In this document: in pieces, positions 63,218-63,239 of the stretch
Position numbering within the stretch: position 1 is the first letter of the stretch
Layout: each line of letters starts with the position of its first letter
Assembly: GCF_056746865.1 (NCBI RefSeq)
Contig: NZ_CM163382.1
Direction: 5' to 3' (one strand)
Length of the DNA stretch: 64,000 bases
Made by a program: the position numbers and the translations under genes
The notes under the pieces: model-generated
The model's database searches: none
Told to the model about the DNA's origin: nothing
What the model saw: the letters and a program-made list of their open reading frames with translations, nothing else

Positions 63218-63239
63218 CAAGTCCCGACGTCGGGACTTG
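63218..63239. repeat. Perfect 22-bp palindrome
   Basis: CAAGTCCCGACGTCGGGACTTG is its own reverse complement. Confidence 0.6.

Follow-up and report, generated by a model that had tools for sequence, protein, structure and literature searches.

Introduction

A long perfect palindrome in non-coding DNA can be read as a protein-binding operator, as a hairpin-forming element or as one copy of a dispersed repeat. One such palindrome lies between an IS1/IS2 chimera and the genes of a raffinose operon in the stretch of DNA analysed here, 64,000 nucleotides of contig NZ_CM163382.1 (assembly GCF_056746865.1), which we refer to as the window. We asked to what kind of sequence this palindrome belongs, whether its symmetry is kept in related sequences, and what, if anything, it may do at its present locus.

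Results and discussion

Extent and chance level of the palindrome

The perfect palindrome that the original prediction had placed at 63218-63239 (CAAGTCCCGACGTCGGGACTTG) was confirmed and turned out to be one base longer on each side. The full 24-bp sequence, GCAAGTCCCGACGTCGGGACTTGC, occupies positions 63217-63240; its arms (63217-63229 and 63228-63240) are 100% complementary, its centre is an AatII site (GACGTC), and the next pair outward, G63216/G63241, ends the symmetry. It is the longest perfect palindrome of the window, followed by one of 20 bp (55193-55212) and two of 16 bp. That such a sequence is unlikely to arise by chance, as had been claimed, was borne out by calculation: the base composition of the window predicts 0.0039 perfect palindromes of 24 bp or longer per 64 kb, and the longest palindrome in 100 shuffles of the window measured 22 bp and occurred in one shuffle. 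The 24-mer itself was found once in the window, even with up to three mismatches allowed, and had no occurrence in the 100 shuffles. The runner-up, TAACAAAACGCGTTTTGTTA, is situated between nanX and the tip of a second IS66 remnant that is described below; about 0.06 palindromes of its length are expected by chance in the window.

As a single strand, the 24-mer forms a stem of 10 bp capped by an ACGU loop (ACGT in DNA), with a fold energy of -19.6 kcal/mol on the plus strand and -19.1 kcal/mol on the minus strand, and a z-score of -4.0 against shuffles (plus strand). Of the two roles suggested at the outset, operator or hairpin, the hairpin potential was thus upheld, and no link to the regulation of neighbouring genes emerged. 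A MITE insertion was considered as the origin of the 24-mer and rejected on account of absent flanking direct repeats.

Assignment to an IS66-family right end

The weaker database matches to the palindrome-bearing stretch were all located directly downstream of tnpC genes of the IS66 family. In E. coli strains E26, Dog168 and CEA106S, the match begins 33 nt past the tnpC stop codon, and the terminal repeats of the E26 element (L005, positions 3575-3601 and 6245-6271) flank the homologous stretch on both sides. Complete tnpA-tnpB-tnpC elements with the homologous region were also present on a Salmonella plasmid (L006, CP053333) and on a Salmonella chromosome (L095). The TnpC proteins of these relatives contain the domains LZ_Tnp_IS66, zf-IS66, DDE_Tnp_IS66 and DDE_Tnp_IS66_C, their TnpB corresponds to PF05717, and the close TnpC relatives are named ISEc49 (90% identity) and ISSfl3 (85%). 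In the intact relatives, the palindrome begins 61-62 nt after the tnpC stop, within a right-end region of 220-380 bp.

The homologous segment of the window (Table 1; left boundary accurate to about 4 bp) corresponds to the non-coding DNA that extends in intact elements from about 23 nt past the tnpC stop to the terminal inverted repeat. It is a mosaic. Its proximal part of about 170 bp is of the palindrome-bearing type, with window positions 63178-63361 matching positions 2432-2615 of the Salmonella plasmid element at 84% over 184 bp, and its distal part of about 200 bp is nearer to the O157 type, with window positions 63345-63542 matching positions 149-345 of an O157-type 3' region at 87% over 198 bp (both by blastn). 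The right terminal inverted repeat (IRR) of the segment aligns with the O157-type IRRs (GCGTCAATATGAGTTCGCCGGAATATTAC), whose flanks diverge directly past the ...TTAC tip. It also fits the inverted-repeat consensus derived from full IS66 elements (GTAAGCATCCGGTGAACTCATATT), but is divergent and carries a deletion of 2-3 nt; the features that mark a terminal repeat of the family, an inner ...GAGTTCACCGG... core and a ...TTAC or ATAC tip, are both found at this position. The tip lies 14 bp from the rafY stop codon. Judged from these alignments, the palindrome very probably belongs to the right end of an IS66-family element.

Table 1 Features at the palindrome locus (window coordinates)
Feature	Position	Strand	Basis
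3'-terminal 50 nt of a BRO-N domain gene truncated by the IS1 end at 63069	63070-63119	+	Strain M18 CDS end
Orphan IS66-family right end (ISEc49/ISSfl3-like), 377 bp	63178-63554	+ (tnpC sense strand)	Homology to tnpC-to-IRR DNA
Three CCYGAC motifs with 21-bp phasing	63202, 63223, 63244 (span 63202-63249)	+	Motif count
Terminator-like hairpin and T-run (GGACCCGTAGCGAGCGGGTTC then CTGCTATTTT)	63254-63285	- (antisense to tnpC, raf sense)	Terminator scan
Three tandem 33-bp repeats (TCAGTACTTCA...ACCTGAC...TAC), sub-terminal	63342-63440	+	
Divergent right terminal inverted repeat of the remnant, GCGTTAATGTAAGTGTGGAACAATAC	63529-63554	+	Alignment with O157-type IRRs
3' portion of rafY, the carbohydrate porin gene that closes the raffinose operon	63569-64000, off the window end	-	ORF end at 63569

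The segment is devoid of tnpA, tnpB and tnpC and of the first 22 or so nucleotides after the tnpC stop. Since no TnpA, TnpB or TnpC coding sequence adjoins position 63178 in a tblastn search of the window, we classified it as a remnant rather than an element, and no left IS66 end was seen at the palindrome locus. The left end of the Salmonella plasmid element (IRL and 5' leader, element positions 8-125) has a counterpart of 91% identity on the minus strand at 8956-9074. This fragment is of the same element type as the palindrome remnant and lies 54 kb away on the opposite strand; a rearrangement might have moved the left end there from the palindrome locus. Just left of the remnant, at 63161-63174, we noted the sequence ATCTACCGCTTAC, which looks like the tip of an IS66 right repeat of the short type (...GAGCCGCTTAC); the remnant itself starts with GAGCCGCTCAC. 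Together they could be a trace of nested IS66 ends, or could be due to chance.

The intergenic position originally assigned to the palindrome is formally correct, although the context had been missed, as this DNA is the non-coding tail of an IS66-family remnant. Because the transposase genes are gone, we call the copy in the window a fossil. The palindrome is the relic of a mobile element here, rather than a regulator of adjacent genes or a genome-wide repeat.

Distribution across genomes

A 36-mer centred on the palindrome was detected in 295 of 5426 complete E. coli genomes, in each case in the chromosome and never on a plasmid. The two BLAST places reported per genome represent one locus, the palindrome matching both strands, and the palindrome was always embedded in the same IS66-derived sequence. 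Among the plasmids of PLSDB, there was one related copy, that of the Salmonella plasmid. A scan of species-representative genomes with the pattern CCCGG-N25-30-CTGACACCGAAAA returned 58 matches in unrelated taxa, all of them chance matches and none palindromic, and a metagenome scan with a stricter flank pattern gave 13 loci, all of which were the window or E26 variants. An Rfam 15 scan of 62900-63700 yielded three chance-level eukaryotic or archaeal matches with E-values above 2, none of them over the palindrome and none from a bacterial family.

These data bear directly on the comparison with REP/ERIC-type repeats that the original prediction had proposed. A REP/BIME- or ERIC-type dispersed host repeat would be in keeping with a short, GC-rich extragenic palindrome in E. 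coli. The occurrence at a single locus per genome, in this minority of E. coli strains and once in the window, argues against it, as does the form of ERIC/IRU repeats, which are expected to be imperfect multi-copy palindromes of about 126 bp and not single-copy sequences of 24 bp. The sequence of the palindrome is probably also unrelated to REP and ERIC. We regard the likelihood of such an origin as negligible.

Palindrome variants and paired changes

Five close variants of the 24-mer were available for comparison. The perfect form GCAAGTCCCGACGTCGGGACTTGC is shared by the window and strain M18, and the Salmonella chromosome carries a second perfect form, GTAAGTCCTGACGTCAGGACTTAC. The E. coli E26 type (GTAACTCCTGACGTCAGGACTTAC) has one C/C mismatch, the Salmonella plasmid copy (GTAAGTCCCGACGTCAGGACTTGC) has two mismatches, and a remnant in E. 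coli 32F4 (GTAAG-CCCGACGTCTGGACTTGC) shows two mismatches and a deletion. When the two perfect 24-mers were aligned at the same offset, the four differing positions fell into two complementary pairs (2/23 and 9/16, C-G to T-A), for which the probability is 66/10626, or 0.6%, if four differences are placed at random. The Salmonella plasmid variant corresponds to the exact half-changed intermediate between the two perfect forms, and a U.G combination at one pair was observed in two of the five variants, that is, in the half-changed intermediates. The central ACGT is invariant in all five. The palindrome is thus not a unique sequence without conservation, the finding that was to speak against its significance; palindromy is kept in relatives by way of compensated changes on both arms.

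Such a pattern need not reflect selection. Template switching during replication turns imperfect inverted repeats into perfect ones and produces 'compensatory' changes in pairs that require no selection (PMC7202029); one proposal attributes the conservation of perfect inverted repeats in Proteobacteria to this process (PMC5941160). Arm-to-arm correction of this kind, with or without selection, offers the simplest explanation for the perfection seen in two lineages. The same process would suffice if the palindrome had no function at all and were a chance quasi-palindrome in non-coding IS DNA that is rich in repeats and evolves fast, perfected by template switching and passively carried. This possibility, which we consider rather unlikely, gains from the observation that intact elements tolerate one or two mismatches (the E26 type, present in about 66 genomes, and the Salmonella plasmid copy). 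The copy in the window, moreover, is perfect despite the loss of the transposase genes; in the collections searched, its exact 24-mer was found only in remnants and never in an intact element. The presence of different perfect 24-mers in two lineages weighs on the other side, together with the constant offset from tnpC and the position of the palindrome within an array of phased motifs.

Conservation beyond the closest relatives

Covariation among the five close variants was not significant, because the sequences are too few for a pair-count test: two pairs changed on both sides, a number that was reached by 200 of 500 shuffles (also 112 of 500). Among 14 diverse 3' regions in the register of the window, 72.7% of the cells could pair, compared with 68% in shuffles (reached by 16 of 500), while slid partners paired in 21-47% of cells; changes on both sides affected six of the ten pairs, which was matched by nine of 500 shuffles. 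This weak pairing in the same register in distant relatives is a further point against a complete lack of function. G.U pairs numbered 19 on the plus strand and 10 on the minus strand, which hints weakly at an RNA with the sense of tnpC.

Outside the closest subgroup, the homologous stretch of 33-35 nt folds at the level of shuffled sequences (mean z of -0.48 on the plus and +0.38 on the minus strand), and RNAalifold gave no consensus structure over the 14 regions (-0.45 kcal/mol). What the wider family keeps is the sequence of the right arm and of the following block (GGACTTGCG..CCTGACA), not the pairing, and the left arm varies. The whole region is absent where the IRR soon follows tnpC. In the Yersinia relative (L101), the terminal repeat ends 62 nt past the tnpC stop, and in IS682 and the second M18 copy (copy b) it ends within about 50 nt of it. 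Family members without the whole region exist, and the region is therefore dispensable for transposition. The strong palindrome is a lineage-specific, dispensable feature. The restriction of strong hairpins to one sub-lineage, with relatives at the random level, and the dispensability of the region in the family are both as expected for a passively carried sequence.

Other motifs of the right-end region

The palindrome is surrounded by further repeated motifs (Table 1). The middle one of the three phased CCYGAC motifs (63223) forms the inner part of its left arm. In the remnant, CCYGAC occurs six times on the plus strand, where 0.45 occurrences are expected (about 13-fold enrichment; at most four in 2000 shuffles), and once on the minus strand, and the 21-bp phasing recurs in the Salmonella chromosome, E26 and Salmonella plasmid elements. 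The core of the 33-bp repeats (CAGTACTTC) was found in full elements only in the 3' region and only on the plus strand, at a spacing of 33-34 bp, and never at the left end. The terminator-like site on the minus strand lies 14 bp to the right of the palindrome; it has equivalents in the Salmonella chromosome and E26 elements and is absent from the Salmonella plasmid element and from L100. No terminator-like site was found on the plus strand of any of these 3' regions. Nor did we find a promoter-like site in the palindrome region or a conserved ORF across it, the Salmonella chromosome copy having no ORF there at all. Neither a 3' palindrome nor right-end repeats are described in the literature on IS66, IS679, ISEc49 and ISSfl3 that was covered.

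Some IS66 right ends were seen to duplicate their last 130-155 bp or so in tandem, including a second IRR (Salmonella plasmid element, 6130-6440; L008 from EDL933, about 3900-4150). Tandem duplication of right-end tips suggests how the long, repeat-rich region grows.

From its sequence, the palindrome could also be read as a putative duplex site of dyad symmetry that is bound by a TnpC or TnpA dimer, with one sub-terminal recognition motif present as a head-to-head pair within an asymmetric binding array at the right end. The perfect symmetry extends to the invariant central ACGT, a self-complementarity that a hairpin loop would not need. The half-site contains CCYGAC, which is strand-specific and phased at 21 bp, that is, two helical turns. 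The N-terminus of TnpC carries leucine-zipper, zinc-finger and HTH-type domains (Pfam LZ_Tnp_IS66 and zf-IS66), and a binding site would also accord with the family-wide sequence conservation of the right arm and the adjacent block only, and with the confinement of the 33-bp tandem repeats to the right end. Two further resemblances were noted, namely that the right arm (GTCAGGACTTAC) matches the core of the 33-bp repeats (GTCAGTACTTCA) at nine of 12 positions and that the half-site starts with GTAAG, as do the tips of the inverted repeats of the family. Both likenesses, however, are within chance for the amount of sequence searched, other matches with at most three mismatches occurring at unrelated places, and we discarded them. 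Symmetric C-G to T-A changes, as seen in both half-sites, would affect recognition except at positions that the protein does not read, the motifs are missing from the left end, and distant relatives are without the dyad, some of them without the region. On balance, we consider a dimer-binding site unlikely.

A bolder extension would be that the long right-end region of the ISEc49/ISSfl3-like subgroup represents an undescribed functional cis-module, composed of CCYGAC motifs, a 24-bp dyad with a (T/C)GACGTC(A/G) core and the 33-bp repeats. Such a module might load several TnpC dimers at one end only, through their leucine-zipper N-terminus, or encode a structured RNA that controls transposition and whose palindrome is under selection for pairing. 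We deem this improbable. To our knowledge, little is understood so far of how IS66 elements transpose and of what TnpA and TnpB contribute, and a functional right-end region would add a cis-acting component to the family.

A possible role in transcripts

We regard the palindrome as belonging, in cis, to the IS66 right end, and tentatively read it as a quasi-palindrome of the 3' untranslated region that forms a hairpin, is confined to one lineage and persists here as a fossil. With still more reserve, we propose on the basis of the predicted fold and the paired changes that it acts as a hairpin in RNA. The palindrome would fold into a stable stem-loop in any transcript that crosses it. On the plus strand, this stem-loop would lie in the 3' untranslated end of the tnpC mRNA; on the minus strand, it would form in transcripts that read into the element, where a terminator-like hairpin and a T-run come just before the palindrome. 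Stem-loop and minus-strand site together could mark transcript ends or insulate the transposase gene from the tip of the element, and might block transcription that enters the element from its right flank.

No U-run follows the palindrome stem on either strand (the tails are CGCCCCTGAC on the plus and CCGGGAGATT on the minus strand), and the palindrome is therefore not a canonical intrinsic terminator. In agreement, a scan of 63000-63700 for intrinsic terminators reported only the neighbouring minus-strand hairpin.

The position downstream of the raffinose genes raised the question whether the palindrome might instead be a host element of the raf operon, either an operator for RafR or the terminator of the operon. 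It lies about 330 bp beyond the rafY stop and on the path of raf read-through, the T-run hairpin on the raf strand directly precedes it, and no good terminator was seen between rafY and that hairpin. Several findings contradict this assumption. The palindrome is present in strain M18 without raf genes, its close variants reside in IS66 elements of Salmonella and E. coli, and plasmid raf operons are without it. Furthermore, it has no U-run of its own, and its place at the operon's 3' end is remote from the promoter, at which operators of repressors exert their effect. As the sequence also occurs where raf genes are lacking and is not part of the plasmid raf loci, we rejected a raf operator or terminator as its origin and hold this reading to be very improbable. 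The only plausible present effect of the palindrome at this locus would be, at most, on the 3' ends of raf read-through transcripts.

Genomic surroundings

Many complete E. coli chromosomes share the 551 bp that surround the palindrome with 100% identity. On the right-hand side, the minus strand encodes a carbohydrate porin, a GH32 hydrolase, an MFS transporter, an alpha-galactosidase and a regulator, which we take to be rafY, rafD, rafB, rafA and rafR from what is known of the pRSD2 raffinose operon. To the left lies the IS1/IS2 chimera, whose IS1 end truncates a BRO-N domain gene; the BRO-N CDS of strain M18 ends at the position that matches window 63119, and homology to this context extends to about 63173 (H102).

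Plasmid-borne raf operons keep only the last 115 bp or so of the IS66 right end beside rafY (88.6% identity; window 63439-63554 compared with positions 3001-3130 of L104, pSJ_94). Past this shared segment, the plasmid loci run into a thiosulfate-reductase fragment and IS1. As plasmid and chromosomal raf share the IS66 tip at rafY, the junction between tip and rafY predates their split. Collinearity of the window with E. coli strain 165 (99%) starts at position 50678, and that with the raf-island strain ECCNB12-2 only at 61000, so that the upstream annotation was taken from strain 165. These limits of collinearity indicate that the DNA left of the TPR gene differs among strains that share an identical raf/IS66 junction.

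A second IS66 right-end remnant was identified on the minus strand at 55472-55994. It comprises a C-terminal tnpC fragment (82% amino acid identity to TnpC of the Salmonella plasmid) and a 3' non-coding region of the O157/M18a type, and its IRR ends at 55472 (GTAAGGGTTCGAGGAACTCAACATTAACGC on the plus strand). The equivalent of the palindrome in this remnant is a weak hairpin only (AACCTGCAGTTGGGAATT). The two remnants are inverted relative to each other, with their tips pointing outward, and bracket about 8 kb (55472-63554) that contain tia, two phosphoethanolamine-transferase genes (one of them a pseudogene), an integrase fragment, the TPR gene, the IS1/IS2 chimera and the BRO-N fragment. 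This layout resembles that of a composite transposon, but the flanking 8-mers differ (CTTAATTG and TTTGTTAC), and the idea was abandoned. More distant tnpB/tnpC coding sequences of the IS66 family, with 30-35% amino acid identity to the query element, were detected at 19276-21186, 5122-5902 and 7962-8872, all on the plus strand; the window is unusually rich in IS66-family material.

Implications

The 377 bp of 'intergenic' DNA beside rafY can be re-labelled as an IS66-family right end, and the IS66 tip that borders the raffinose operon on chromosomes and plasmids alike offers a clue to the mobilisation of this operon. The palindrome itself is IS debris of an ordinary sort. Its compensated changes are of mild interest, in that two perfect 24-mers and their half-changed intermediates exemplify either selection that favours pairing or the correction of one arm of a quasi-palindrome by the other. 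As a caution, palindromes in IS debris should not be taken for operators of nearby genes.

Comparison with known systems

REP/BIME and ERIC sequences are, like the palindrome, short extragenic palindromes able to form stem-loops, and REPs stabilise upstream mRNA as 3' stem-loops, the same kind of action as we propose here. The palindrome differs from them in being single-copy, strain-restricted and part of an IS remnant. With Rho-independent terminators and stabilising 3' stem-loops it has in common a GC-rich 10-bp stem with a tetraloop in a 3' untranslated position, beside a terminator-like site on the opposite strand; it departs from the former in having no U-run on either strand.

The ends of Mu, Tn7 and Tn402-type elements carry sub-terminal arrays of transposase-binding repeats. 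The short, strand-specific repeats at helical phasing inside right ends of the type found in the window are reminiscent of these arrays, but they occupy one end only, the array is absent in close family members, and the sites are putative. Quasi-palindromes that act as template-switch hotspots, such as the lacZ QP reporters of E. coli and the inverted repeats of Proteobacteria, likewise occur in imperfect and perfect versions and show changes in complementary pairs (PMC7202029; PMC5941160), although the mutational event is in our case deduced from five sequence variants.

The closest counterparts are the IS66 elements with a long right end, among them relatives annotated as ISEc49 and ISSfl3, the afa-dra-linked element of E26 and the copies of O157:H7 and of Shigella virulence plasmids. 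Whereas the copy in the window is a mosaic without tnpA, tnpB and tnpC and without a left end at its locus, it shares with these elements the offset of the palindrome, the CCYGAC motifs, the 33-bp TCAGTACTTCA repeats and the type of the right terminal repeat.
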